Shown piece after piece: positions 34,253 through 50,364 of a stretch of DNA of 64,000 nucleotides (positions are counted from its first letter, which is position 1; every line of letters starts with the position of its first letter). A program made the translations under genes and the position numbers. The DNA is taken from the NCBI GenBank assembly GCA_965246715.1, contig CBDFFH010000009.1, forward strand, positions 1-64,000. Direction: 5' to 3'. This stretch comes from Chamaesiphon sp. GTDB taxonomy: Bacteria > Cyanobacteriota > Cyanobacteriia > Cyanobacteriales > Chamaesiphonaceae. The notes under the pieces are model-generated. The model ran no database searches and was not told the DNA's origin. It was given only the letters and a program-made list of their open reading frames with translations.

Positions 34253-37200
34253 TTACCTCCGGTAGGCTTCGCCAACGATATTTTCAGTTGGCGATCGTTC
34301 TACTACGATAGAATTCTTCGCTCTATTAACGGGTACGATTACAGTAGGTTCTTGAGCTATAGATATAGAGGGAGTTTCAATTATTTCTTGTTCGGGCACA
34401 GGAATTTCTACAACCCAATGAGAAAAATCATCCGGTGCGCGATCGCCATCGGGGTAAACGTCATTGAGCAGTACTCCCAAGCTCTTTATCTCTGCCATCT
34501 TCGCAACATCTCCAGCCAGCTCCGAAGCTTGATAGAGCTGCGGCAGCTCTCCTGCTGTTGGCAAGTAGCGTCGCTGTGATGAAGGGGCTGGATCGACCCG
34601 CTCCAGTGGTGTAGATTGCTGCGGTAGTGGCATGAGTTCCCCGCGTTCGCGAAGCGCGCCGAGGCGGTCGATACTGGCGACAGGCTGATGGTCGATGAGG
34701 GATCGAACTTGAATCTCAAGAATTTTCTCGTTCGAGCCACGCGATAACGTTCCTTTGAGTAGATGAGTGCCACTGTTGAGCTTGGCTTTGGACTCTTTAT
34801 TGATTAACTCTCGACCTAGCAACCCGATCGGTATCCGTCGTCCCCCAGAACCAAGATAATCGGCTGAAATCTCCTTGCCCTGACGATTGAATGCAAACTT
34901 ACCTGTAAAGTCTTCGATCTGAATCTGGCTAATAGCGGGATTAGGATTGACAACAAATTCTCCTAGCTCGGTGCGGATGTGAATTTTCAGATCGAGGGGT
35001 CGAACGATTTTAGCAGCTACCACCGTGCCAGGAGCCAGCAGCGGTGAGTCGCCATAAGTACTCAGACCCAAGTCGATCGTGCGGCCATCTGGTTCGATCG
35101 CGCTCACACGTAAATCGCGCTCGAATCTAATTGCCAGTTCCGCTCCATCTCGTAACTCTAACGCTGCTGCCATAGGACGATTGAGCGCCATCGGCGGTAC
35201 GTTATCCAGGTGTTGGCTAATTTCGTTAGCAAAGATTTTGGTAGCCATGCCCATCCCCGCGCTGGAATGCCATGCGGCAGACACATACTGTATTCGCTTG
35301 TCATTGGCAATGTTTTCCAGTTTGCTCAGTACCTTATCTGCACTAGCAAATACCGCATCGACATCGTTTTCTAGAGTAAAGGGTGGATGAAATTCGAGCG
35401 TCGATCTGGTAATTCTCGATACAGTCGATCCTGAATTTGCCCGATCGCCCTAGTACAATTACGATATTGCCGAGCGAACTCGTCTACGACTGCTTTTTGA
35501 TCGTCATTATGAGTAATCGGTATCAGCGAGCGAAACCGTTTGTTTAAATCTTCTGATTCGATTTCTTGTAATTCATGCTGCTGCCCACCATTGTAAAATC
35601 GGTTGGCAGTCTCCACCGCCCAACCGATCGGCTCTTGAGTATTCGTGGGGAGGTCGCGGGTGAGGTAAATATCGGGCTTTTTGACATTCTGACGGAGTTG
35701 GTGAGACTTGTACTGAATGCGTTCGCCAAATTCGTGAATAGTTTCATCGATCCCAACGCTGCTTTTGGCTGTATCGACAGCAGTTTGCAGGTTTTTTGCC
35801 ACCGCACTGTCACAATAGCCTTTGAGAAGCCGATTGACACTACCTAAATTCTGCTCGGCAAATGCCAGTCGCTCTGCCGCTGGGAATTTATCGAGCTGTT
35901 TACTCGCCTGGACGATCTTCTCGATCTTCTCTGCTAGCTGCATTGGGGGCAACCCACGCTCGACTAGATACTCATCGCTGGGAATCTCTTCAATTGAAAT
36001 CTCACTATAAGCTGCGCCAACTTGCTTGAGCAAACCGATCTTCCGCTTCGGTTCGATGTAGACTGTTTCGGATGCGAGGGATTGTAAGATTATCGACTGG
36101 TTGGCAACTTTGCCCGTCGGGTTGTTAGCAGTAATATCCCAGGCTCGCCAAATAGCTTGAGTTAGTGACTCGCCTTCATGCCAAAGGTGGTCTGCTTTTT
36201 TGGCTTTGGCGATTCTCCAAGGGAGAGGCTTCGCCAACGGTAACGGCTTGCGATCGGGAGTATTAGCTTCGATAAATTCCTTAACTGACAGCGGAAATTT
36301 CCCGCGTTCTAAATCTGGCTGAAGGATTATTTGAGCGATAATATCTCTACCTGCTTCATACCGATTGCTACCTGTAAGGGGTAAATTGCCTAACTGCTCG
36401 CGGAGTTGGTGGGGGAGATTATCATTTGCTAGATAACCGACGAAGAAACCATTGCGATCGCCATCAAAATCGGTAATTGCAATGTGTTTTGCTGTCCAGG
36501 GATTCAGATAGACTACGCCGCGTTTATCGAAGGCTTCGGGGTCGCGATCGCGCAACACTTCTAAGTTATTAATCGCAATCGCCGCAGCACCGACATTGGG
36601 AAAGGGCGATCGATAGTAATCAATGATCGCGCCGTGGGGTAAGTCACGATTGCAGATCTCCCAAGGTTCCAGCTTGCTATGGTGCTGGGCGATCGCAGCG
36701 GGGACGACGATTCCACTAGTCGCTACATCCAACCTGTCGCGCCTGAGCGATTTGTTAAGCTGGCGGCTGATATTTGGCATGGTTGAGCTGTCCGTACTTG
36801 TCAGCTTTGAGCAGCGCGGCAAGTGTCGATCGATTGTTGCGCGGTTCGTCATCGTCTACACCATCGATTCCTTCCGGCGTGTCGATAACTAACTCGCGAT
36901 CGCGTCTTGCTTCTTCTTTTGCTACGAATTTAGCTGCCACCTGCCAATTGTCGATCGCAACATCGGCAAGTTCGGCGGCTTTGGCTGCCATTATCGGATT
37001 GAGTTCGTTAAGAGTTGCCTCTGGAATCGTACTCTTGACTTGGGCACCCACTGATTGATTGGAATACTCGGCTTTAATTTTCCGATTGATCCACCAAAAA
37101 CTCTCTAATTCTAAGATTCCTGGCTGCTTGAGTCTGCCGTCATCGCCCTTGATGTCGTTGGTTGAGACGATCGCATCCACACCCAATCGTTCGCACCAGG

Positions 37201-38107
37201 AGCTAGTAGCTACAGTCCCTTTAGCAATTCCAGGTAAATCTGGCGTGGCGGCACGAAATTGTAGTACGGCACTCCGAGCGATCCTGTCGATCTTTTTCTC
37301 GATTGTTTGGGCAGTTTGCAAATCTACAAAATAGTTGGCGATTCTGCCCGTATGCTTGAATTCTTCCAGCAACTTTCCGGCTAATTCTGGATCTAAACTA
37401 TCGCCGAATGCTACATCGTTGGCGAAGCCTCTCCTTTGGAGAATCCACTCGCCCAAGTCACCTAGCTCGTCATCATTAATATCTTCGGTCTGTTGCAATC
37501 CACGATCTATGGCAAGTAAAACCTCTTTATCCAACAACAGCCCGCGCAAGAGCTGAGTCGATGCCAACATCGTCCCGTCGCCCATTTTGTCGTAGAGAGC
37601 GTCTAGCTGTTTGGTAGAAATTTTGCGCCCATCGCGGTCTATGAGTGGAGCTGCACCACTCGCTCTTTGCTCGTCATCGATAATCAAGATTCGAGTATTG
37701 CCCGATTTTGTCTGAGCCGCAGCTTTCCCGTCGCTGACGATTAGCGAACCATAAGCAACTGCATTGTGGGCACTGCGCTTACCGTCTGCGTAAATTGGTC
37801 GAACACCACGGCTACTGTCGCCTTTGGCAATTAATTCGGCAGTAAGTCGATCTGTGAAATATCCAGACTTACCACTGGTACAGATCAAATATTTGCCTTT
37901 GGCTTCCAAGCGAAGGCGATCTGAGTCATTGACTCCGTTATAAAAGTTAGCTACATGTAAACTTCGTGGCCCGATCCGATGCGTCTGGAGCCACTTTTCT
38001 AAATAGCAGTTCTCGATCGATTTCAACTTTGGCGTTCGCTTGCCCTCTGGATTAAAGTCGGTGAGGTGTTTACCAGTCTTTAAGTCAAATTCTTGGAACT
38101 GAAGCAT
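34253..38107 (-). pseudogene. RdRP/YonO-like single-subunit two-barrel nucleotidyl polymerase, frameshifted
   Basis: Ordered motifs MGDG, LQFR..PGIAKG, YRSP, TDFDGD across three overlapping ORFs; frameshifts near 36785 and 35402. Confidence 0.7.
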
Positions 38108-38835: not shown

Positions 38836-39567
38836 TACAGCATGTTTGAAACTAACCATCATGGCATTGAGGGAAAATAGCTAATGGAGGCTTTTGCTGG
38901 GCTGGGATTTTAAAGACAGCATCGATCTCTCTAACTTGGCAGAGATTAGGATTAGCTGAAGAGATCGCATGTCACAAGCAAGTCGCTGTATAGATCGCGT
39001 GGCGATAGGTGTTCACGATTGTGACACTCAAAGCATTGGAAGACACTTGTAGCCATATTTTATCTGGAATCTGACGAAGCTCAATAATCGAGAGTTTCTA
39101 ATGCAGCAACAAACCTCGCTCTGAATAAGTAGAACGAGGTGGATAAATTTGCTATTTGGGTCGATTACCTATGGCAAGCGAACAGACCAAACAGTCCCTA
39201 CTTATGTGAGTCGATCCGGTTAAAGTATCAATCTCTCAGTAGGAACCAAGTTCAAATTTATGCACTGATTTTACTAAAATAGTTTTATTTTAAAATATTT
39301 TTATTGGCAATAATGGTATTGCGATGACTGTCGTTACAAGACTTGTTTCATTTTGTCTTGTTGCAACATATTAATCGATCTTATGAGCAATAATTTACTA
39401 GCTATTAGTGGCTATTGTGATACAATATGGATGAAATTAAAATGCACCTTTGTCTCTAAACGCCAATTAAGAGATAAGGTGCAATCATTCATTAGTTTTA
39501 TTTTACTAGTAGTGCTTGGGATTCTAGCCCTTGCACTGCTCCATAGCAATTAGGAGAAGCTGTATCT

Positions 39568-40113
39568 ATGCCTATAGTACCAGATTCAAATCGATGTGAA
39601 GGGGTGCAACCTCTCCCATTTCATTCGTATTCTTACGACAGTATCATAAAGTTACAGAACCTCATCCTACCACAGGAACCGCTCCTATTGTGGTTTGCCA
39701 AGCGAGCTGCTGAGTACAAAGATGTGCAGGAGTTCTGGCAAGAGCATAAATATTTGTTGCCAGGGACAATCGAAAGCAATTGGCGAGGGTACGAATACGT
39801 TCGGATTTTTTGCCATGCAATCAATGTCGAAATCACCGCCTGCTTCTTTCCTTCTGGTTCTTACACAGATGTCCACGATCACGATGGTTGGAATTGGAAC
39901 TTCTCAATCGTTGGAGAACTACTGCTAGACATAAAATATAAGGTCAGCAACAACAAATTTAAAGAAGTTGAGTGCATAAAAATGACCGCATCGCAGCCGC
40001 AAGGCTGCATTCTCAAACCACACCAAAGTCATGAAATGTTTGTTCCGCACTGGGCACAACCCAGTATCTCCTTTAACTTCCATTACCCCGCCAGACCGCT
40101 AGATTTAAGTTAA
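39568..40113 (+). CDS. Cupin-fold, cysteine-dioxygenase-like protein
   Basis: GGAG RBS; TDVHDHDG (HxH) and a distal HEM histidine. Confidence 0.65.
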   Translation: MPIVPDSNRCEGVQPLPFHSYSYDSIIKLQNLILPQEPLLLWFAKRAAEYKDVQEFWQEHKYLLPGTIESNWRGYEYVRIFCHAINVEITACFFPSGSYTDVHDHDGWNWNFSIVGELLLDIKYKVSNNKFKEVECIKMTASQPQGCILKPHQSHEMFVPHWAQPSISFNFHYPARPLDLS

Positions 40114-40300
40114 AGCGGTGGACTATTGCTTTACAACAAAAATTTTAGAAGCTTACGTAGTCCAACTAAGCTTTGTCTTTTAAAAGCTGGATGAAACCTG
40201 TCATTCAGCTTTTATTTTGGTGAGAGCATTGGGTTCGCCCTTGATTATATTTCCTGCTGAAATGCAGGGAACGCCGTAGGGCTAAATATTGTGATATTAG

Positions 40301-40615
40301 TTACGATCGAGCGGTAGTTGGCAAACTGATACGATCTATATTGTTGTGAAACTTCCACTTATTTGCCTTTTCCCAAGCTTCCTCAAACTCGTGGCGGTCG
40401 ATCTTATGCTCCTCTTTTATTTTGAGCCGAGACAGAGACTGATCGCACATCCGCAACTTGTCTTTCATGCTACTTTCGGCTCCACAAGAAAACCATTCTT
40501 GCTTATCTGGGTATTGTTCGACCTGTCGATTAGCCCAGTCATCAATGAACTCAATATACTGAACGATCCTTTTCCCTGGTTGCTCTACCGTGAATTTATA
40601 ATACTGAGTAGTCAT
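40301..40615 (-). CDS. Putative immunity protein
   Basis: Directly downstream of the ART-like toxin; RQVE...I...EFEEAW pattern. Confidence 0.5.
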   Translation of the reverse strand: MTTQYYKFTVEQPGKRIVQYIEFIDDWANRQVEQYPDKQEWFSCGAESSMKDKLRMCDQSLSRLKIKEEHKIDRHEFEEAWEKANKWKFHNNIDRISLPTTARS

Positions 40616-40648
40616 AAAATTATTGTGTTTATATTTTTTATGTATAGA

Positions 40649-41056
40649 TCACAAAAGTGTATCTTCAGTTTTTCCATGTATTGAATCTCCAATTTTCAGA
40701 CCTACATTAGTCTTGAAAAGACTAATTCTCCTAATGTCTTCTGGATCTGGATCTTCTCCTATTATTTCTAAATATAGCTGTCTAAAATCGGAAACTTCAT
40801 TTTCTGGTAAAATCAACTGAAAATAATAATCGAGCGTATCTATGTCTACGGCTGTCCCAAACAATTCAATTGGGACATCCATGTTGCCTACTTGAATTGC
40901 TCTAGCAACTTCTATTGGTTCAATCGTTGTTAAGTAGACACCATCACCAAAGGTTGCATCCTTCCTTCCGCTGCTTTTGAGTGATGGCTTAATGATACCC
41001 GTTTCGAGAATACCTTCATATCCCTCTTTAGAGGTATAGTGACGATAGGAGCGCAA
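40649..41056 (-). CDS. Tox-ART-HYD1-like ADP-ribosyltransferase domain protein
   Basis: HYTS..G..GI...G.I..S..FGDGVYLT signature; TTG start uncertain. Confidence 0.65.
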   Translation of the reverse strand: MRSYRHYTSKEGYEGILETGIIKPSLKSSGRKDATFGDGVYLTTIEPIEVARAIQVGNMDVPIELFGTAVDIDTLDYYFQLILPENEVSDFRQLYLEIIGEDPDPEDIRRISLFKTNVGLKIGDSIHGKTEDTLL

Positions 41057-41517
41057 AATAAACTTAATTTACATCACATAATTTAGTTGCTCAAGTTTAA
41101 CACTCTATTTTTTATCTTAACGAATCATTATTTGATTTTCTATAAATTACTATTGAAATAATTTGTTTGATAAATTATCACAACCTAGCTAAAACAAATT
41201 ATTTTATCAAATGAAACGAAAATATTTTTGCTTTAAAAGACATTCAAGGCAAATTGTATGTGGTAAAAAGATTGTAATCTACAGTCAAGGTTCGATCTCG
41301 TAAGCGCGAACGGATGAGGATTGGTGCGCTGCTAGAAGAACGACAATACACCCTAACGCTTAGATCTCGTCAGGATCGATGTCTAGCGATCGAAACCTAG
41401 CGCGTAATCGCTCGTTTCTCAATTGGCAAAGCCAGTAATCTCGATATCTCGATCGACATTCCGATCGTGGTGCTGGCTTTGATCATAGCAAGATTTAGCT
41501 CGACCGAGGATTGATCG

Positions 41518-41754
41518 ATGGTATATCTAATTCCCGAAGTAGCCAAGCTAACCAACGATTTAATCGATCGAGGTGAAGACATCATCATGGAATCAGATCC
41601 CAGCACCAAAGATATTTCATACTGGCATTACGGCAACATCATTATGCCCTGCGGCGGTACTCATGTCCGCAGTGCCAAAGATATTGGCGTAGTAAACATT
41701 CGGCGGAAGAGTCATGGCAAGTCGCTCGATCGAATTTATCTCACCATTGAGTAA
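41518..41754 (+). pseudogene. C-terminal remnant of an AlaX-like alanyl-tRNA editing protein
   Basis: MPCGGTHV..IG.V.IRRK..GK..DRIY; the N-terminal HxxxH part is missing. Confidence 0.7.
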
Positions 41755-41899
41755 ATGAACTAATTTCTTTGGTATGGCCGCTTGCGGTCGATCTCATGCC
41801 AGATCGCTGAGGGCGGAACTTGCTAGCCAATTTCACGTCAAATGCGAACATATGAGCTAATGACAGACTTTAACTTTACTTTGTGGTTAATATATTTTA

Positions 41900-41914
41900 G
41901 CTTTAAAAGACATT
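41900..41914 (+). promoter_or_regulatory. Putative operator GCTTTAAAAGACATT, identical copy at 41230-41244
   Basis: 15-bp perfect repeat in two promoter regions; adjacent to a TG-n-TATGAT extended -10-like element. Confidence 0.45.
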
Positions 41915-41969
41915 TATGCTATGATGTTATTGTAAAATATTTTAGTGCTATAGTTTATAGCCCAAAATT

Positions 41970-43073
41970 ATGAATGAGCCAAAAAAGCGGGGACGACCGC
42001 GAAAGGATGGTGAATCAGAACAGCCGGAATTGGCAATTTCAAACGGTTATCCAGATTTCCTTGACGTTATCGAGAAGTATCTGGCTGAAGCCAAGTGGAC
42101 TAAACGAGAGTTGATGACAGCGATCGGTTTTGGCGAGACACAACTATATCGTTGGAGTCGTGGCGAGAGCGTCCCACGCAAAGCAACGGTTAATCGAATC
42201 GCCATTCAACTGGCAAATAGGCTAGATGCGATTTATGGCAATCGTCTGAACGATCCCTCTCCAGCAACAGATGCGATCGATAGCTTGCTCAACGAGTTAC
42301 TGGGAGCCGCCGGATTTGCTGCTTCGGTTAGAGGTATCACTGGTGATGATTGCTGGAACAAAATCGCTCAGAATCAATGCTGGACACTGGGCTATACAAT
42401 GGTTTCAGAGTTGGCTATCCCACCAGAACGACGTGGTGGTAAGCCCACAGGAAAAGCTATAGAGTACGCCGAAACGATCGGACGATTACTAGGAATAGAA
42501 ACTCTCTGGGAATATCTTGACTTCAACGTCATGCCAGGTGCGATCAGGCAAAGACAAGTCGATGGCATTGCTCCAATTATGTTGGTGCTGCCAGGAAGAT
42601 TATTCGACTACAGTTTTTCAAATCGATGTAGTGAGACACCCTTCACTTTGACAGCGATCTCCGATCGTCAGCTTATTGATGGTGCCGATTGTTTGGAAGC
42701 CCTGCCAGCAAATAAAGTCGAGCTACTTTTTGTAAAGGGTGAGTTGGGTGATTGGGGTGCAAGTGTCTTATCTAACAAGTATCTTCTCAGACAGAGTTTT
42801 GCTAATGCTGACGAGGCGATTAGTTATATGCAGGGGTTAATCGAGCGGCAGGAGTTAGACAAAATACCCGTATTACTCATTGACAATAGCACTGGCGGAT
42901 ATCTAGTCGATCGAGAAAATGATAGAGGTCAACCTAAGCTATTGCAGATTGAAATCAAAAGCGTCAACCTAACAACGTTTAATTCTTTTGCATTTCATCC
43001 AGATGAGAAAATGCTGGTTAATGCAGTCAACCAGTCCATTCCACTTACTCCATATATTCAAATCAAAAACTAG
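41970..43073 (+). CDS. Transcription regulator: AT-hook + XRE HTH + family-3 solute-binding domain
   Basis: KKRGRPRK; ELMTAIGFGETQLYRWSRGESVP; G.AIEYAETIGRLLG..DF..M..AI....VD SBP-like segment; no signal peptide. Confidence 0.7.
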   Translation: MNEPKKRGRPRKDGESEQPELAISNGYPDFLDVIEKYLAEAKWTKRELMTAIGFGETQLYRWSRGESVPRKATVNRIAIQLANRLDAIYGNRLNDPSPATDAIDSLLNELLGAAGFAASVRGITGDDCWNKIAQNQCWTLGYTMVSELAIPPERRGGKPTGKAIEYAETIGRLLGIETLWEYLDFNVMPGAIRQRQVDGIAPIMLVLPGRLFDYSFSNRCSETPFTLTAISDRQLIDGADCLEALPANKVELLFVKGELGDWGASVLSNKYLLRQSFANADEAISYMQGLIERQELDKIPVLLIDNSTGGYLVDRENDRGQPKLLQIEIKSVNLTTFNSFAFHPDEKMLVNAVNQSIPLTPYIQIKN

Positions 43074-43084
43074 AGGGTAACAAA

Positions 43085-43777
43085 ATGAGCCAGCAGATCG
43101 ACATTCAAGAGCTAATTTCACTGATCCTAAATTCCGAGAAGCTATTTATAAACACCAAGATTCGTGAAGAATTGATTGCATGTATCTTGAATTCAAGTAA
43201 ATTGGTTGAATTTGGTGAAGGCTTTTACTTCATTAGACATGATTTTTGCAAGCTAAATTTCATAGTTGGTGCAAGATGTTCTAATGATGAAATGCTCTGG
43301 TCTGGCTTGGCTAAGAATTTAGTGGAAGAGCTAGGCGGCAAGAGCGGTATCAGTCACAACAAACTCTATTGTGACTTTCTAAAGTCTATTGGAGCCAAAA
43401 CGGAAAATGAATTAGACTGCCCTACCTTCGCTCAAGAATTTAATGATCGCTGGGAAGAATTTGCTAGAACCGCCCCTCTAATGGAGGCTTTATCGGCAAT
43501 AGCTATCTACGAAATTTTTGACGTTCCAGATTACCAGATGTTTTTAGAAATACTAGAACGAGCGAAAGTACCAAAAGAAGGACTAATATTCTTCAGGGTT
43601 CATGCAAATGCTCACCACTTTGAAATGTTTGAAGATACGGTAGCTTGGATACTCACTCAAGAAAGTGGTCAAGAAGCATTCGATCGAGCCAAAGATTTTG
43701 TATTTGATACTCAAAGAAAAATGTGGATTGGCCTAACAGAATTCCTCCAGTCAAAACAATTAGTAGCCGCAAATTAA
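43085..43777 (+). CDS. Heme-oxygenase-like diiron enzyme (PqqC/CADD/TenA-like, HDO)
   Basis: NLVEELG..SH..LY..FL, AIYE and FFRVH..AHH metal-ligand pattern. Confidence 0.75.
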   Translation: MSQQIDIQELISLILNSEKLFINTKIREELIACILNSSKLVEFGEGFYFIRHDFCKLNFIVGARCSNDEMLWSGLAKNLVEELGGKSGISHNKLYCDFLKSIGAKTENELDCPTFAQEFNDRWEEFARTAPLMEALSAIAIYEIFDVPDYQMFLEILERAKVPKEGLIFFRVHANAHHFEMFEDTVAWILTQESGQEAFDRAKDFVFDTQRKMWIGLTEFLQSKQLVAAN

Positions 43778-43799
43778 AATCTAAAACGGGAGAGATAGA

Positions 43800-44672
43800 A
43801 TGTTAAAAAAATCACTGCTCAGGTATGTATTGCTAGGGTTGTCCCTATTTAGCGTACTCATCTTTAATTTAGCTGGATGCACCAATAGTAATGTGGCACC
43901 TCCCACAGCTACTGCTAGTGCCTCCGTCATGGATCGGGTAGCAACCGATAGCAAAGTCAAAATCGGCTACTTAGTCTTCCCGCCAGCGATTACCAAAAAT
44001 CAAACTAGTGGCGAAATTGGCGGACATCTAATCGATACCATCAAAGAGATTGCCCGACTCAGTAAATGGACACCTGAGTTTGTCGAAACAGATTGGGCGG
44101 GATTTACAACGGGATTAGATTCTGGTCGGTTTGATATTTCCGTCGTGCCAACCTTTGTGACAGTCCCTAGAGCATTATCCATCTACTTTACCAAACCACT
44201 ATTCTTCGCTGGTAACAGTGCGATCGTCCGTGCTGGTGAAACTAAAATTACCACCCTTGCCAGCATCGACAAACCCGAAATTAGAGTCGCCGTCACCCAA
44301 GGTGAAGCGGGGGATGAATACGCTAAGGCAAACTTTAAAAAAGCGAAGATTACCAGCTTTCCAGGTAGCGATCAATCCGCCGCATTCCAAGCTGTAGTCG
44401 CTGGACGCGCCGATATTGCCTTGGGGGATGCTTATGCTACCGCTCAGTTCGCCAAAGCCAATGCAGCCAAGGTCAAAGACCTATTTGCCGCTAATCCCTA
44501 TAACCTCACCCCCGTATCCTGGGCAGTGAGAAAGGGCGACGACAAATTACTCAACTTCCTCAATAGCAGCATTGAAGCCCTCGATTATCAGGGACGCTTA
44601 CGCGAGTTCGAGCAAAAAGCAGGTGCTAACTGGTTGCACCCTAAAAAAGTCTTGGAATTCACTAAAGGCTAA
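43800..44672 (+). CDS. Polar amino-acid ABC transporter substrate-binding lipoprotein
   Basis: Signal peptide with LAGC lipobox; W.GF..GLDSGRFD, AVVAGRAD. Confidence 0.9.
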   Translation: MLKKSLLRYVLLGLSLFSVLIFNLAGCTNSNVAPPTATASASVMDRVATDSKVKIGYLVFPPAITKNQTSGEIGGHLIDTIKEIARLSKWTPEFVETDWAGFTTGLDSGRFDISVVPTFVTVPRALSIYFTKPLFFAGNSAIVRAGETKITTLASIDKPEIRVAVTQGEAGDEYAKANFKKAKITSFPGSDQSAAFQAVVAGRADIALGDAYATAQFAKANAAKVKDLFAANPYNLTPVSWAVRKGDDKLLNFLNSSIEALDYQGRLREFEQKAGANWLHPKKVLEFTKG

Positions 44673-44678
44673 AACCTC

Positions 44679-45353
44679 ATGGGCTGGAACTTTGCGGTCA
44701 TGTGGAATAGTTTTCTACCCCTGTGCCTTGCCATGCTCACCACCATTTGGATTAGCATTGGCACGATTGCCATCGGCACGACTTTAGGGGTGCTGCTGGG
44801 GATTCTATCCCTCACCTCAAATCAATTTGCCTCCAGACTCGCACAGGCATTTATCGAACTATTCCTCGCCCTCCCAGCCCTAGTGATTCTCGTCTGGCTC
44901 TACTATAGTTTGCCGCTGATTTTCCCTGGCTTCATCTTGAGTGGCGATGCCTGTGCTGTGCTGGGGTTAGGATTGAGTTTATCCGCCTTCGTTGCCGACA
45001 TTATCCGAGGTGGCATCAACGCCATCCCCCCAGGGGAACTGGAAGTTGCCTACTGTACGGGAATGACTCGGCTCCAAGCAATTCGCTACATCCTCATCCC
45101 CCAAGTCCTCCAGCGATCTTGGCTGCCGCTGATGGGGCAATATATCACCACCTACAAATTTTCGACCCTAGCATCAGTCATCGCCGTTCCCGAAATCCTG
45201 CATACAGCTAATGCAATCATCGCTCAAACCTATCGCCCATTAGAGATTTACTCGATCGTCGCCTTCATGTTCGTCATCACAATTATGCCGCTCAACCTGC
45301 TCCTCCGCAGACTTCAGCGAGTGAGCAACCTTGGTGGCATGGAGAAAATATAG
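44679..45353 (+). CDS. Polar amino-acid ABC transporter permease
   Basis: Hydrophobic; DIIRGGINAIPPGELEVAYCTGM EAA-like loop. Confidence 0.9.
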   Translation: MGWNFAVMWNSFLPLCLAMLTTIWISIGTIAIGTTLGVLLGILSLTSNQFASRLAQAFIELFLALPALVILVWLYYSLPLIFPGFILSGDACAVLGLGLSLSAFVADIIRGGINAIPPGELEVAYCTGMTRLQAIRYILIPQVLQRSWLPLMGQYITTYKFSTLASVIAVPEILHTANAIIAQTYRPLEIYSIVAFMFVITIMPLNLLLRRLQRVSNLGGMEKI

Positions 45354-45358
45354 TCCCT

Positions 45359-46039
45359 ATGGCAGAAGTACTCCTCCGACTCGAAAACATCCAAAAAAAA
45401 ATCGCTGGCAATACGATCCTCGATAACGTTAGCTTGACACTCGATCGCGGTGAAAGTCTGCTAATTCGCGGTAAGAGCGGCTGCGGCAAAACCACACTGC
45501 TCAGATGTATCGCCCTGCTAGAACAGATCGATCGAGGACAAATCCTGTTCGATGGCAAGGTAGTATCTGAGAAGGGTGTACTCGATCGCACCAAGTACAA
45601 GCCCGAAATCGGGATGGTATTCCAGCAACTCTACCTCTGGCCGCATCTAACCGTCTTAGATAATGTCTCCCTCCCCCTCCATTTGCGCCAAGGCGGACAC
45701 AAAAAACTAGCTGACGGGCTGGCGATCGAAAAACTATTCCAACTCGGCGTAATCGGCAAAGAAACCGCCTATCCCCATCAACTCTCCGGCGGACAAAGAC
45801 AACGAGTTGCCCTCGCCAGAGCCTTAGTCCATTCCCCCAGCCTCCTCCTCCTCGATGAAATCACCGCCAACCTCGATCCCGAAACCGCCAGCGTCGTCCT
45901 CGAACTCGTCGAAAAAATTATCCTCTCCGGTACCACCGTCATCATGATTTCCCACCTACCCGTCACCTCTTCCGTCTGGATGTACGAACTAAACGCCAGC
46001 AACTGGGAGTTGGAAAAAAGACAACAGCGCAATAGCTGA
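45359..46039 (+). CDS. Polar amino-acid ABC transporter ATPase
   Basis: GKSGCGKT, GMVFQ, LSGGQRQR, LLLDE, ISH. Confidence 0.9.
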   Translation: MAEVLLRLENIQKKIAGNTILDNVSLTLDRGESLLIRGKSGCGKTTLLRCIALLEQIDRGQILFDGKVVSEKGVLDRTKYKPEIGMVFQQLYLWPHLTVLDNVSLPLHLRQGGHKKLADGLAIEKLFQLGVIGKETAYPHQLSGGQRQRVALARALVHSPSLLLLDEITANLDPETASVVLELVEKIILSGTTVIMISHLPVTSSVWMYELNASNWELEKRQQRNS

Positions 46040-46476: not shown

Positions 46477-47238
46477 ATGACATTCTCTAATCCACCGATT
46501 GTTGAAGCCATATTCCATGTAGTAGTAGAGCGTGACAGTGAATTTAATAATGAAACATTAAATGATTATGCTAAGTACATCACAGAAAAATTTCCTGCTT
46601 TCGATCGACAAGAACAAAGATTTCTAAAAAATGACATATCATTTCATTCTGACAATCCACACAACATAACTTCTTCTATTAGCAATATTTTACAAGGATA
46701 TCTTTTAGCATCCAATGATAACCCCAGAGTTATTCAAGCTAATATAGACAACTTCTCCTTTAGTAAATTGCCTCCTTATGGAACATGGGAATCATTCTAC
46801 AAAGAAGCAAATGAATTCTGGGAGAAATACGCTGAGATAACTTCAGTCGATCGAGTCAAACGCCTTGGATTACGCTATCTAAATCGGATTGAAATTCCTT
46901 TTGATAATAGATCTTTTAAGTTACGAGAATACATCAAGATATTCCCTGAAGTCACTGATGATTTATCAGTAACAATTTCTGGACACTTTATGCAAATGTC
47001 TCTTGACTCTGAGCTTTATAAACCGTCCAGAGCAATTGTAAATCAAGCAGTTGGCAATGTAGGCGATATGAAGTCCACTCCTTTAATATTTGATGTTGAA
47101 GTTTTTCAAGATGTAGACCTTACGCATCAAAACAATTCCAAAGAAATAGAATCAATTTTTATTAATAACTTACGAATATTCAAGAATAGTATATTCTTGA
47201 ATAGTATCACTGAAAAATCACAGGAGCTTTTCAAATGA
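46477..47238 (+). CDS. TIGR04255 family protein
   Basis: NPPIVEAIF, PYGTWESF, RLGLRYLNRIEIP, IFDVEVF motifs. Confidence 0.8.
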   Translation: MTFSNPPIVEAIFHVVVERDSEFNNETLNDYAKYITEKFPAFDRQEQRFLKNDISFHSDNPHNITSSISNILQGYLLASNDNPRVIQANIDNFSFSKLPPYGTWESFYKEANEFWEKYAEITSVDRVKRLGLRYLNRIEIPFDNRSFKLREYIKIFPEVTDDLSVTISGHFMQMSLDSELYKPSRAIVNQAVGNVGDMKSTPLIFDVEVFQDVDLTHQNNSKEIESIFINNLRIFKNSIFLNSITEKSQELFK

Positions 47239-47810
47239 TAGTTTCAGAACGTCAAACCATCGCAAAAAGTCCTATTCAAACAGTAACAAAATCAGGTAGT
47301 TACAATGTTATTGCAAGCTCTAGCAAAGGTGAAAGCTGCGAATACAAGCGAGTTGAAGCACAGATAAAGTGTCAAGATCGTACTGAGGTTGCTCACGTAC
47401 TTGAAAGTCCTGATGTTGCTGAATTAGAAAAAAGAGCAGAGGATTTAAGAGACTTATTACTTGAAAATCGTACTGCTTTGTCAGAGCAGGAAATGCGTCT
47501 ACTCAAAGGACTTTTTAATAGTAACAAGCAACTCATTGCTCTGAACAAAAAAACATCTCCATTAATTTTAGTAGCATTAGCAAGTCTTTTAGAGCCACTA
47601 ATTGAAAATCCTGCCTATGCTCAAGACATAGAGTCTATCGTCAAGAGCTTACTAAAATCACCATCAACAAGTTTAAGATATGCTGCTCTAGACATTATCA
47701 CTGCTGGATTAGGAATAGTTCCTGTTGCAGATTCATTACTAAAAGAAGCGAAAATATTGCTAAAAAATGAAGAGCCTGGGTATGTTCTCGAATACTTGGA
47801 GTCTCTTTAA
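47235..47810 (+). CDS. Hypothetical protein (helical C-terminus), middle gene of the cassette
   Basis: ATGA overlap with the TIGR04255 gene. Confidence 0.7.
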   Translation: MIVSERQTIAKSPIQTVTKSGSYNVIASSSKGESCEYKRVEAQIKCQDRTEVAHVLESPDVAELEKRAEDLRDLLLENRTALSEQEMRLLKGLFNSNKQLIALNKKTSPLILVALASLLEPLIENPAYAQDIESIVKSLLKSPSTSLRYAALDIITAGLGIVPVADSLLKEAKILLKNEEPGYVLEYLESL

Positions 47811-47813
47811 TTT

Positions 47814-49788
47814 GTGGAGCAATTTCTTTATTATCGAAGTTTGAGTAAAAGTGCAGATATCTGGAGAAAGGGGAAAAAAATCAGGTTCTACCGAACTTAC
47901 TATGCTAAATCAAGGATTGAAATGCCATGCTAGCAAACTTCTGATCTGAAAATTCTCAAAATTTCTAAACCCATATCCCATTCTTTTTATTAGCTTGAGT
48001 TTATTGTTAATTCCTTCGACGACTCCTTGAGTTGTTCTATTATCAAAATAGGCAATTATTTCACCAATCCATCTTTTAATAGTTCCACAACTCTTGGGGA
48101 ATTTCCCACAAGCATTCTTGAGCCAGTCACACAAGCTTATTAGCCCATTTCCCCAATCTGTTTTTGATTCAAATATATCTCTAAATAACTCTTTTGTTTT
48201 GTGCATTGCTGCTAATTCTGGAAAAACGTCTCCAATCTCTTTCAACTTCTCTTTTTGCAATTCATTCAAATCCGCTTCGTTTTTGAGTATTGCATATTTA
48301 CTGTGAGTTAATGCTGCTAATTTCTTGTTCTTTTCATCTTTGTTCTTCACCCTCTCAGCCTCTCTTTTGATTTTAATTCTCTCTCGATCTAACTCTTCAT
48401 TTATCTGTTTCATTACATGAAATCTGTCTCCAACCACTTCAGCATTTGGTATCAATTCATTTACCAGACTTTTGTATGATGAAAATAGATCGATACTTAC
48501 TTCTGTAATTTGGTTCAAAACCTCCGAACCCCAAGACTTCAAGCACTCACCAATACATTCTTGAGTCCTTTTTGGTAAGATGGCTATTAACTCTCTTTTT
48601 TCTAGATCTACTAACACCGCACAATAGTTTTTTTGCCCTTTAACAAAGGCAATTTCATCAATTCCTAGTCTGGTTAAATTCTCTGGCTTTTTTTGCACTA
48701 GATTTACCCCAGCTTTTTTGATTATTGTCTCCACTTCTTGCTCACTTAATCCATTTCTTTTGGCAACACTTTTAATATCACTAGCTAGACTCTCTTCGAC
48801 AATCTTCTGCTTCATTCGCTCGGTGAAATGACTTCTCTTTTTGATGAAATTTAATTCCTCACTGAATTTTCGACCACAACTCATACACTTGAATTGACGA
48901 CGATTAATTTTAAGGTAAACATCATGTTCACCGAATGGTAGATCTCTCACTGTTAATTGGTGATTCTCATGAAGTTTATTACTTTCAGTTCCACAATGAG
49001 GACACACTGCTTTTAATTGCTGATTTTCTAGATAAATAAAATAACCGATTTCATCTAAGATCTTATAAGCAGTGACGGTCATTCCGTCGATATTAAGAAT
49101 TTCATTAATGGTTTTTAGTTGCGATTTGGATGACATAATGCAATTCAAGCTTATTTGTTGCCAGAAATCAAGATCTTACTATTCTATAATAAAATCTGTC
49201 ATTTATGCTGCACCAAGCTTCCATAACTCAAAATTATCAATTTTGTCAATTAAACTTGATTCTTATCCACTACTTAGCATAGCAAGTTCGGTAGAGCCAA
49301 AAATCAAAGCTTTTCCCCCTGATGTTGAAAAAGAGACATACTTGAGCCACATGACAATGGGAAAAGGATTTCCTTCGATATGGATGTCATCAAACAATGA
49401 AGATCTAGAAAGAATTGCTCTTGGGCTTATGCTATGCAAAGGAAGTCTTGACAGGATAGAATTTGTCGGATTAAATCTATGCTGTTTTGAAAAAACACAA
49501 GTCAAAATTATCCAATCTTCTAATCCTCAATTTCCATTACCTTCGGTTGGCAATCTTCATCATGAATTACACAGCTATAATGACGACAATATTACCGAAT
49601 CAATTGAAATATTCCTATATTGCAATGGAAAGATCGAGAAATTTCCAAAAGTCTCGAATTCAGACACAGAGACAAGTATGCTAAACATAGCAAAGAAGTA
49701 TATCGATGAAATAAGTGGTGAAGTTTATATAAAGAAAGCTAGGGACTGGATTGAAAAATACGGAAAATCTCAAGTAACTGGGAATTAA
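47814..49788 (+). pseudogene. ART-fold (CmdT-like) putative toxin interrupted by ISL3
   Basis: Removing the IS and one AAAAATCA copy joins MEQFLYYRSLSKSADIWRKGKKI to KAFPPD..PSIW..ERIALGL..DRIEFV..HHEL in frame. Confidence 0.6.
47884..49298 (-). mobile_element. ISL3-family IS with intact transposase (47910-49148)
   Basis: TIR GG(T/C)TCTACCGAACTT; 8-bp TSD AAAAATCA; CPHCG, GIDEIA, DRFHV, EGINNKLK. Confidence 0.95.
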
Positions 49789-49840
49789 AAAAGACAGTTG
49801 AATTAAATGGAGTTATTTCTCGATCTACTATAGACGTTAG

Positions 49841-50364
49841 TAGATCTAGGACAAATCCTCTTCGATGGCAAAGTAGTATCAGAAAAAGGTGGACTCGATC
49901 GCGCCAAGCACAAACCAGAAATTGGCATGGTATTCCAGCAACTCTATCTATGGCCGCATCTAACCGTCTTAGATAATGTCTCCCTCCCCCTCCATCTACG
50001 CCAAGGCGGACACAAAAAAATAGCTGATGGACTCGCGATCGAAAAACTATCCCAACTCGGCGTAATCGGCAAAGAAACCGCCTATCTCCATCAACTCTCA
50101 TGCGGACAAAGACAGCGAGTCGCCCTAGCCAGAGCCTTAGTCCATTCCCCAAGTCTTCTCCTCCTCGATGAAATCACCGCCAACCTAGATCCCGAAACCA
50201 CCAGCGTCGTCCTCGAACTCGTCGAGAAAATTATCCTTTCCGGTACCACTTTCATCATGATTTCCCACCTGCCCGTCACATCTCCAGTCTGGATGTACGA
50301 ACTAAACGCCACCAACTGGACATTGGAAACAAGGCAACAGCATCAAGAATTTGAGAATCGATGA
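49841..50364 (+). pseudogene. 5'-truncated diverged duplicate of the ABC ATPase gene
   Basis: Near-identical to about 45525-46030; lacks Walker A; signature changed to LSCGQ. Confidence 0.85.

Follow-up and report, generated by a model that had tools for sequence, protein, structure and literature searches.

A regulator, HDO-fold enzyme and importer cassette in Chamaesiphon as a candidate module for the uptake and oxidation of a modified amino acid

The 64,000-nucleotide stretch analysed here, henceforth called the window, forms the start of contig CBDFFH010000009.1 (C9) of the Chamaesiphon sp. assembly GCA_965246715.1 and contains a cassette of five plus-strand open reading frames (ORFs) for a regulator, a predicted metalloenzyme of heme-oxygenase-like (HDO) fold and the three components of an ATP-binding cassette (ABC) importer. 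We tentatively propose, as a serious possibility falling somewhat short of an even chance, that this cassette takes up and oxidises a modified amino acid, is induced by a ligand and is accompanied by accessory genes which can be swapped. The ABC system would import the modified amino acid and the HDO-fold iron enzyme would oxidise it with O2, while a cytoplasmic fusion of an XRE-type helix-turn-helix (HTH) with a family-3 solute-binding protein (SBP) domain, termed XRE-SBP3, would keep (C)TGTC-N7-GACA(G) operators repressed as long as it has bound neither substrate nor product. A divergent slot upstream would hold exchangeable genes handling the ligand, its products or a signalled stress: cysE-JAB-cysK-alaX, a GntB-like desaturase with a DUF2000 protein or, in the window, a cupin and an ART-domain ORF. 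The import-sense-oxidise logic is of a known kind, but searches of an open-access library turned up no description of the sensor family, the operator or the enzyme variant. Nor was any description of the regulator-HDO-importer architecture found there, the supplements of PMC13149037, which give AlaX neighbourhoods and may include this module, lying outside this search.

Enzyme, importer and sensor

The five genes are separated by gaps of 11, 22, 6 and 5 bp, and the ORF coordinates bear out the intact, tightly spaced operon (41970-46039) described in an earlier note on this DNA. The segment from 38844 to 45667 is matched with 0 differences by a single 6,824-bp contig of run X1, which is possibly the source sample. 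The core genes encode an importer; neither an exporter nor a second biosynthetic enzyme is among them.

The enzyme reaches 48 bits with the HDO profile PF14518 of Pfam (cut-off 28.9), and its structure model (predicted local distance difference test, pLDDT, 92.6) adopts the seven-helix heme-oxygenase-like fold. The closest fold is that of BesC with a Z score of 22.0 over 212 residues, followed by HrmI (21.6), Npun_F6505 and CADD (both 20.8) and, at rank five, FlcD (20.3), with PqqC at 16.3 and B. subtilis TenA at 14.4. No TenA or PqqC model in Pfam or NCBIfam matches the enzyme, and the automatic label 'PqqC' which many matches of its family carry is misleading since the fold is closer to HDOs of the BesC/CADD type (20-22) than to either of these proteins. 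The enzyme is thus not the ordinary TenA/PqqC orthologue which, according to the earlier note, would have spoken against its proposal; fold and profiles place it nearer to BesC and CADD. BesC also provides the best sequence match in the PDB (E 1.8e-5), yet identity amounts to only 14-18% and the score with the NCBIfam BesC equivalog stays far below its cut-off (20.6 versus 500 bits). The CADD subfamily model fol_rel_CADD likewise falls short (20.5 versus 200 bits). It is weakly matched by 28 of the 44 family members. E81, H91, E143 and H173 are spaced as in the HDO motif, whereas the last two ligands differ and no folate genes lie near the cassette. Locus L020 (886-2058, genome G420) holds a CADD-like HDO fused to a cupin and broken by a stop.

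According to PMC11363339, about 85% of HDO groups share the ligand motif E-H-E-H-(D/E)-H. Of these six ligands the enzyme possesses only five. E81, H91, E143 and H173 are invariant in all 44 family members, while position +4 varies (His in 19, Glu in 10, Asn in 9, others in 6), as does +7 (Glu in 33 of 44), the invariant histidine being found at +5 (H178). In addition, D146 and D149 of the second core helix (alpha2) do not vary within the family. We infer that the metal site is either a rearranged dinuclear one, with D146 serving as substitute ligand, or mononuclear. The earlier description as an HO-like diiron protein accordingly holds for the fold and for PF14518, while a diiron centre is not assured with five of six ligands. 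A deviant ligand set on helix alpha3 is shared with FlcD, a mononuclear HDO variant; in FlcD, however, both terminal ligands are absent (E-H-E-H-V-R; PMC11363339), whereas the present enzyme keeps the histidine at +5 as well as both aspartates of alpha2. R51, N58, W72, N78, Y142, Q210 and W214 are invariant, too, which suggests one substrate across the family, and 38 positions including the likely pocket are identical in 44 of 44 sequences. This subfamily with its unusual ligand set belongs to a superfamily with about a dozen validated enzymes in which new chemistry is common. A cyanide-releasing reaction of AetD/SktA type coupled to cyanoalanine detoxification (PMC11869266) was rejected, as the fold of AetD gives a Z score of only 15.4 and nothing positive was found.

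Profile matches of all three transport components (SBP_bac_3, 69.5 bits; HEQRo-type permease TIGR01726, 65.3 bits versus a cut-off of 42.2; ABC_tran, 119 bits) agree with the polar amino-acid ABC system proposed earlier, the family-3 SBP being a lipoprotein (lipobox LAGC27 in the sequence) encoded in one operon with permease and ATPase. The nearest solved relatives of the SBP are members of the AncCDT/CDT clade, 3K4U and the Trp-bound 9E2B. R124, E169 and D210 are present in eight of eight SBPs. In family-3 pockets, the Arg position binds the carboxylate and the Asp position the amine of the ligand. Compared to AncCDT-1 both are kept (R124, D210), whereas SGMTITPER is changed to VPTFVTVPR and GTTS to GEAG in eight of eight or nearly all SBPs. 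Because the carboxylate-binding Arg and the amine-binding Asp are retained while the usual Thr is replaced by Phe or Leu and a Glu is added, the ligand is probably a non-standard amino acid, and the pocket would fit one with an unusual amine or side chain. The Phe at the amine-site position presumably resembles that of EhuB. The AncCDT/cyclohexadienyl dehydratase clade supplies the best sequence matches of both the SBP and the sensor domain; the cassette proteins differ from it by the replaced amine-site Thr, the extra Glu and the fusion of one copy to an XRE HTH in the cytoplasm.

The same data bear on another explanation, namely that the operon serves the ordinary import of one of the standard amino acids (Lys, Arg, Trp or the like) under a local repressor, with an enzyme which makes or breaks a simple derivative, the neighbouring genes being incidental cargo of an island. 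The nearest solved SBPs indeed bind amino acids, lysine derivatives are the substrates of BesC, the nearest structural neighbour of the enzyme (PMC13108848), and the region is full of mobile DNA such as ISL3 and toxin-antitoxin genes. Against this, all NCBIfam substrate equivalogs (Lys/Arg/Orn, Gln, cystine, His, ectoine) score far below cut-off with the SBP, the best of them with 73 versus 256 bits, the AncCDT-1 motifs are altered, and the patchy spread of the cassette (2 of 401 phylum genomes, see below) is unlike that of a housekeeping importer. We consider this explanation unlikely.

The regulator carries an XRE-type HTH, which is matched by Pfam HTH_26 with E 4.5e-4 and thus short of the cut-off, and after it a binding domain recognised by SBP_bac_3 (E 5.6e-5). 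The structure model of this domain matches family-3 binding proteins (E 7e-14). Profile comparison aligns the domain with the importer SBP at 19% identity (E 2.6e-5), so that both share one fold, as had been claimed. It lacks a signal peptide, and R210 and D305 are present in 38 of 38 regulators, E258 in 37 of 38, with G-E-x-G kept. HTH and SBP3 domain of the fusion described earlier are thus found. Its AT-hook stretch KKRGRPRK is there in the basic N-terminus, yet it is disordered (pLDDT <50), without Pfam match and only partly conserved (G in 22, R in 31, P in 29 of 38). The combination of HTH and cytoplasmic ligand-binding domain is that of a one-component XRE regulator, and distant relatives are built alike. 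The XRE-SBP3 family extends far beyond the cassette (199 clusters at E<=0.001, 94 at E<=1e-10) and thus represents a widespread, apparently unstudied sensor family with a predicted operator. Two distant members, P0237 and P0244, are fused to a C-terminal domain of about 240 residues without Pfam match but with His/Asp/Glu motifs, possibly another enzyme in the place of the HDO. The cassette provides two binding proteins, and a ligand co-purifying with them would reveal the substrate of the enzyme.

Distribution, predicted operator and divergence

A GTDB genome scan with the enzyme alignment yielded nine loci, a search of the genus one more (L021 in genome G401), which together with the window makes eleven. 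In nine of these eleven enzyme-holding genomes (window, L001-L006, L009, L021) regulator, enzyme, SBP, permease and ATPase follow each other in this order on one contig, which meets the earlier doubt as to whether the genes co-occur elsewhere; the nearest named cassette relative, L001, belongs to a Chamaesiphon metagenome-assembled genome. In L007 enzyme to ATPase lie on one contig and the regulator at the end of another. Such cassettes are rare; among 401 genomes of the phylum the regulator and the SBP profile each match the same two. The enzyme occurs strongly in 3 of 27 genomes of the genus, where one further match is weak and contains a stop, and in 2 of 144 genomes of another family. In a protein collection, 14 of 41 regulator matches have a longest contig equal in size to that of one of 53 enzyme matches, and two of the 41 are regulator-enzyme fusions, as is found in L001, too. 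Carriage by a plasmid or virus was rejected, no match being obtained in plasmids or viral contigs. In gene trees of nine loci the sequences cluster by lineage while inner branches stay open, and these trees constitute no test of co-evolution.

A motif was first seen before the regulator in three Chamaesiphon-type loci. Perfect TGTC-N7-GACA palindromes stand upstream of the regulator in L002, L005, L006 and L009, and two more precede the SBP gene in L005. A matrix built from four Nostocales sites has its top matches upstream of the regulator in the held-out loci L001, L002 (three sites), L003 and L004. Four Nostocales genomes, three of which served for training, contain the strict 17-mer form of the palindrome a single time each; it is absent from the L002 genome and occurs in 1 of 201 phylum genomes. 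In the held-out genome G430 the single strict site lies on a previously unseen 6.3-kb contig, 538 bp upstream of the regulator gene, which had not been located until then. As the palindrome precedes regulator genes of different lineages and correctly pointed to one not seen before, it is a candidate operator by which the sensor likely regulates its own expression; the regulator would bind it as a repressor to be released by ligand.

With a matrix that had no Chamaesiphon-type site in training, the window site at 39328 before the cupin ranks second in the 6.1-Mb genome. Between 38.8 and 41.97 kb of the window five sites of at least 8 bits are found versus 0.24 expected, and none of 1,906 fixed tiles had more than four; this interval was picked after the fact, and two of its five sites had seeded the motif search. 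A genome-wide regulon was rejected, as the loose pattern is not commoner than its reversed control in nine of ten genomes and top sites elsewhere in the present genome point to unrelated genes. The lack of genome-wide enrichment argues for a local regulator. The best operator-like site of the genome (G000:C15:234405, 20.8 bits) is located between divergent genes unrelated to the cassette. A sigma-70 scan yielded nothing above chance.

Several observations weigh against an uptake-and-oxidation module. The pocket residues of sensor and SBP differ (V145/F60, L205/F119), so the two need not bind the same molecule. The operator copies of the three Chamaesiphon-type loci are degenerate (8-10 bits), and the L021 site ranks only fourth. 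In L008, from an Acidobacteriaceae genome, the order is SBP-permease-ATPase-membrane protein-enzyme and the regulator was not found in that genome; likewise, no regulator or SBP was seen in five short loci from metagenomes whose enzymes are distant relatives (40-53%). The accessory genes of the different loci share no obvious chemistry. Finally, as far as the excerpted text of PMC13108848 goes, characterised HDOs are biosynthetic, not catabolic. If the present enzyme is catabolic, HDOs would extend beyond these reviewed roles.

The biosynthetic nature of known HDOs favours a different explanation, a quorum-like signal circuit in which the enzyme would convert a standard amino acid into a modified one, the product would exit the cell and be re-imported by the ABC system, and the sensor would switch on a variable cargo, with sensor domain and enzyme as exchangeable specificity types. 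In line with this, regulator and enzyme are adjacent or fused, the cargo behind the operator is heterogeneous, and close relatives differ much more strongly in sensor domain and enzyme than in the transporter. In the pair L003/L004 the sensor domain is 64% identical with a four-fold site divergence of 0.55 and the enzyme 73% with 0.45, whereas the HTH is 96% and the SBP 99% identical (0.06 for the latter) and two flanking genes show 0.14 and 0.15. Judged against these flanking genes, it is only in this pair that sensor domain and enzyme are truly swapped together. For the window and G401 the divergence of regulator and enzyme (0.48-0.66) equals the genome background (median 0.54 for 51 ORFs with at least 60% identity, at least 70% coverage and at least 25 four-fold sites), and on this comparison it is the transporter that is the recently exchanged part. 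A hypervariable 'pherotype' block as a general rule was therefore rejected, its support coming from L003/L004 only. Apart from the swap being confined to one pair, the 38 invariant enzyme positions argue for one chemistry, and the core lacks an exporter. Such a circuit seems to us as improbable as an ordinary importer. Slightly more doubtful is the further claim of a new build of cyanobacterial cell-to-cell signalling, in which the product of an HDO with non-canonical iron site would be re-imported and read at TGTC-N7-GACA by a binding protein turned transcription factor, sensor and enzyme being swapped as specificity types. A signal-making enzyme, if true, would mean a new communication system in mat-forming cyanobacteria.

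The divergent slot and its cysteine/AlaX module

Pointing away from the regulator, the genes cysE-JAB-cysK-like-alaX form a divergent operon in L001, L003 and L021, and its AlaX (245 aa) contains both zinc motifs (HxxxH and CxxxH in one chain), as seen in the full-length L001 copy. In the window, cysE-JAB-cysK-alaX is reduced to 215 bp of alaX plus another piece of 97 bp, both inverted; judged from the sequence, the module is deleted in this strain, and the cupin, the ART-domain ORF and a 104-aa ORF occupy its place. The remnant of AlaX which the earlier note had recognised does score above the Pfam cut-off of tRNA_SAD. The self-protection by tRNA editing ascribed to it cannot be exerted in this genome, however, because the remnant, devoid of one of the two zinc motifs, is catalytically incomplete. 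Likewise, full-length alaX adjoins the cassette in three relatives, as had been anticipated, but as part of a module absent from most cassette genomes. Full-length AlaX stands beside three of the ten other enzyme loci and a DUF2000 protein (PTH2-like match) beside L004, with a fragment of it in L003; neither was found beside the rest. The L004 locus, which occupies the chromosomal site of L003, instead shows a GntB-like desaturase split into two ORFs followed by the DUF2000 protein with its weak PTH2 match (L004:5572-7426), which may represent another kind of tRNA-linked hydrolase among the accessory genes. A link to guanitoxin or beta-methylamino-L-alanine was rejected, only a weak GntB match in L004 (36 versus 380 bits) being found and SbnA staying below cut-off (182 versus 350 bits).

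The combination of an HDO with AlaX has a precedent in the bes cluster, since BesG, a deacylase of the AlaX family acting in one amino-acid pathway with the HDO BesC, protects against a product of that pathway (PMC13149037). In contrast to bes, the cassette core is devoid of a halogenase and a pyridoxal-phosphate lyase, comprises an importer and an XRE-SBP3 sensor, and has AlaX within a cysteine module. JAB, cysteine synthase and AlaX also occur together in PA2101-PA2106 of Pseudomonas aeruginosa (PMC9866376), and PMC13149037 reports 1,562 AlaX genes next to genes for cysteine, assigning them to primary metabolism. Different from these clusters, the cyanobacterial module lacks genes for MoeB and EamA, adjoins an HDO-importer cassette and is lost in the present genome. 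The cassette also gives this cysteine-linked AlaX module, itself uncharacterised, a connection to one particular enzyme.

This association lends itself to a sulfur-centred explanation, according to which the ligand would be an S-substituted cysteine or thiol adduct cleaved by the enzyme, the products of cysE, JAB and cysK would re-fix sulfur or the leaving group on O-acetylserine, and AlaX would edit mischarged tRNA. Besides the divergent operon in L001, L003 and L021, it is favoured by the occurrence of the module JAB in cassette genomes only (2 of the 27 genus genomes and 1 of 144 genomes from another family) and by a third lineage whose regulator, enzyme and CysK lie on contigs of identical size (10,486 bp), a linkage which is indirect. 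Moreover, FlcE and FlcD, the latter fifth by fold, act on cysteine derivatives (PMC11363339), and PA2101-2103 rise under N-acetylcysteine (PMC9431628). The module CysK is present in 0 of 401 phylum genomes, a sample without positive control. Against a sulfur ligand, these queries did not find the module in the genomes of L002 and L004-L007 nor in those of L008 and L009, where AlaX only is met, and it is deleted in the window while the core is intact. In addition, the cupin fails the cysteine dioxygenase profile CDO_I, and the SBP scores 71 versus 312 bits for cystine binding. We regard the sulfur-centred explanation as very doubtful.

The upstream ORF considered cysteine dioxygenase-like by the earlier note displays cupin-like His motifs only; it has no Pfam, NCBIfam, PDB or CDO_I match, and CDO_I gives no match at E<=5 anywhere in this genome while being positive in 2 of 14 controls. 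As a conserved member of the cassette it was rejected, since it is present in 0 of 26 other genomes of the genus and in none of L001-L014. Between cupin and alaX, the ART-domain ORF and a 104-aa ORF (40301-41056) resemble a toxin-immunity pair. G401 alone has an extra GTPase/DUF697-like gene that separates cysK from alaX (L021:5329-6462). The genome of L003 has a second AlaX directly after a probable 2-oxoglutarate-Fe(II) oxygenase-like ORF (L029:645-2160), a layout of tRNA-deacylase-marked amino-acid clusters.

Features and surroundings of the cassette

Table 1. Coordinates in the window of the cassette genes, slot ORFs and operator-like sites
Feature	Position	Strand	Remarks
one-component regulator	41970..43073	+	disordered basic N-terminus, XRE-type HTH ~aa 28-115, cytoplasmic family-3 binding domain ~aa 125-365
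heme-oxygenase-like (HDO) metalloenzyme, predicted	43085..43777	+	invariant E81, H91, E143, H173, H178, D146, D149
lipoprotein family-3 SBP	43800..44672	+	nearest solved relatives AncCDT-1/CDT clade; R124, D210, E169, F60, W99, F119
polar amino-acid ABC permease	44679..45353	+	profile matches
ABC ATPase	45359..46039	+	profile matches
alaX 3' remnant	41518..41754	+	78 aa, 74/245 codons, inverted versus relatives; keeps CGGTH, lacks HSATH
cupin-like ORF	39568..40113	+	strain-specific; possible regulon member
Tox-ART-HYD1 domain ORF	40649..41056	-	strain-specific insert
104-aa ORF downstream of ART-domain ORF	40301..40615	-	weak DUF6881 match
degenerate operator-like palindrome	41897..41913	.	73 bp before regulator start, directly upstream of TGcTATGAT -10-like box
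operator-like site	39328..39344	.	240 bp before cupin; 16.8 bits, rank 2 in 6.1-Mb genome (matrix trained without Chamaesiphon-type sites)
weaker operator-like copy	41227-41243		170 bp upstream of ART-domain ORF

Mobile DNA abounds around the cassette and includes an ISL3 transposase, a GNAT toxin-antitoxin pair and a duplicated 3' end of the ATPase gene. The second, truncated copy of this 3' end (49843-50341) is 90.6% identical to 45530-46028, and L021 has such a copy, too. Downstream of the cassette (46477-49811), a TIGR04255 protein, a 191-aa ORF and a third ORF are common to the window, L001 and L021, the third being broken in the window by an ISL3 element which has many near-identical copies in the genome. 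Upstream, three large minus-strand ORFs without Pfam matches (34253-38107), which we read as parts of one long gene, are partly common to L021.

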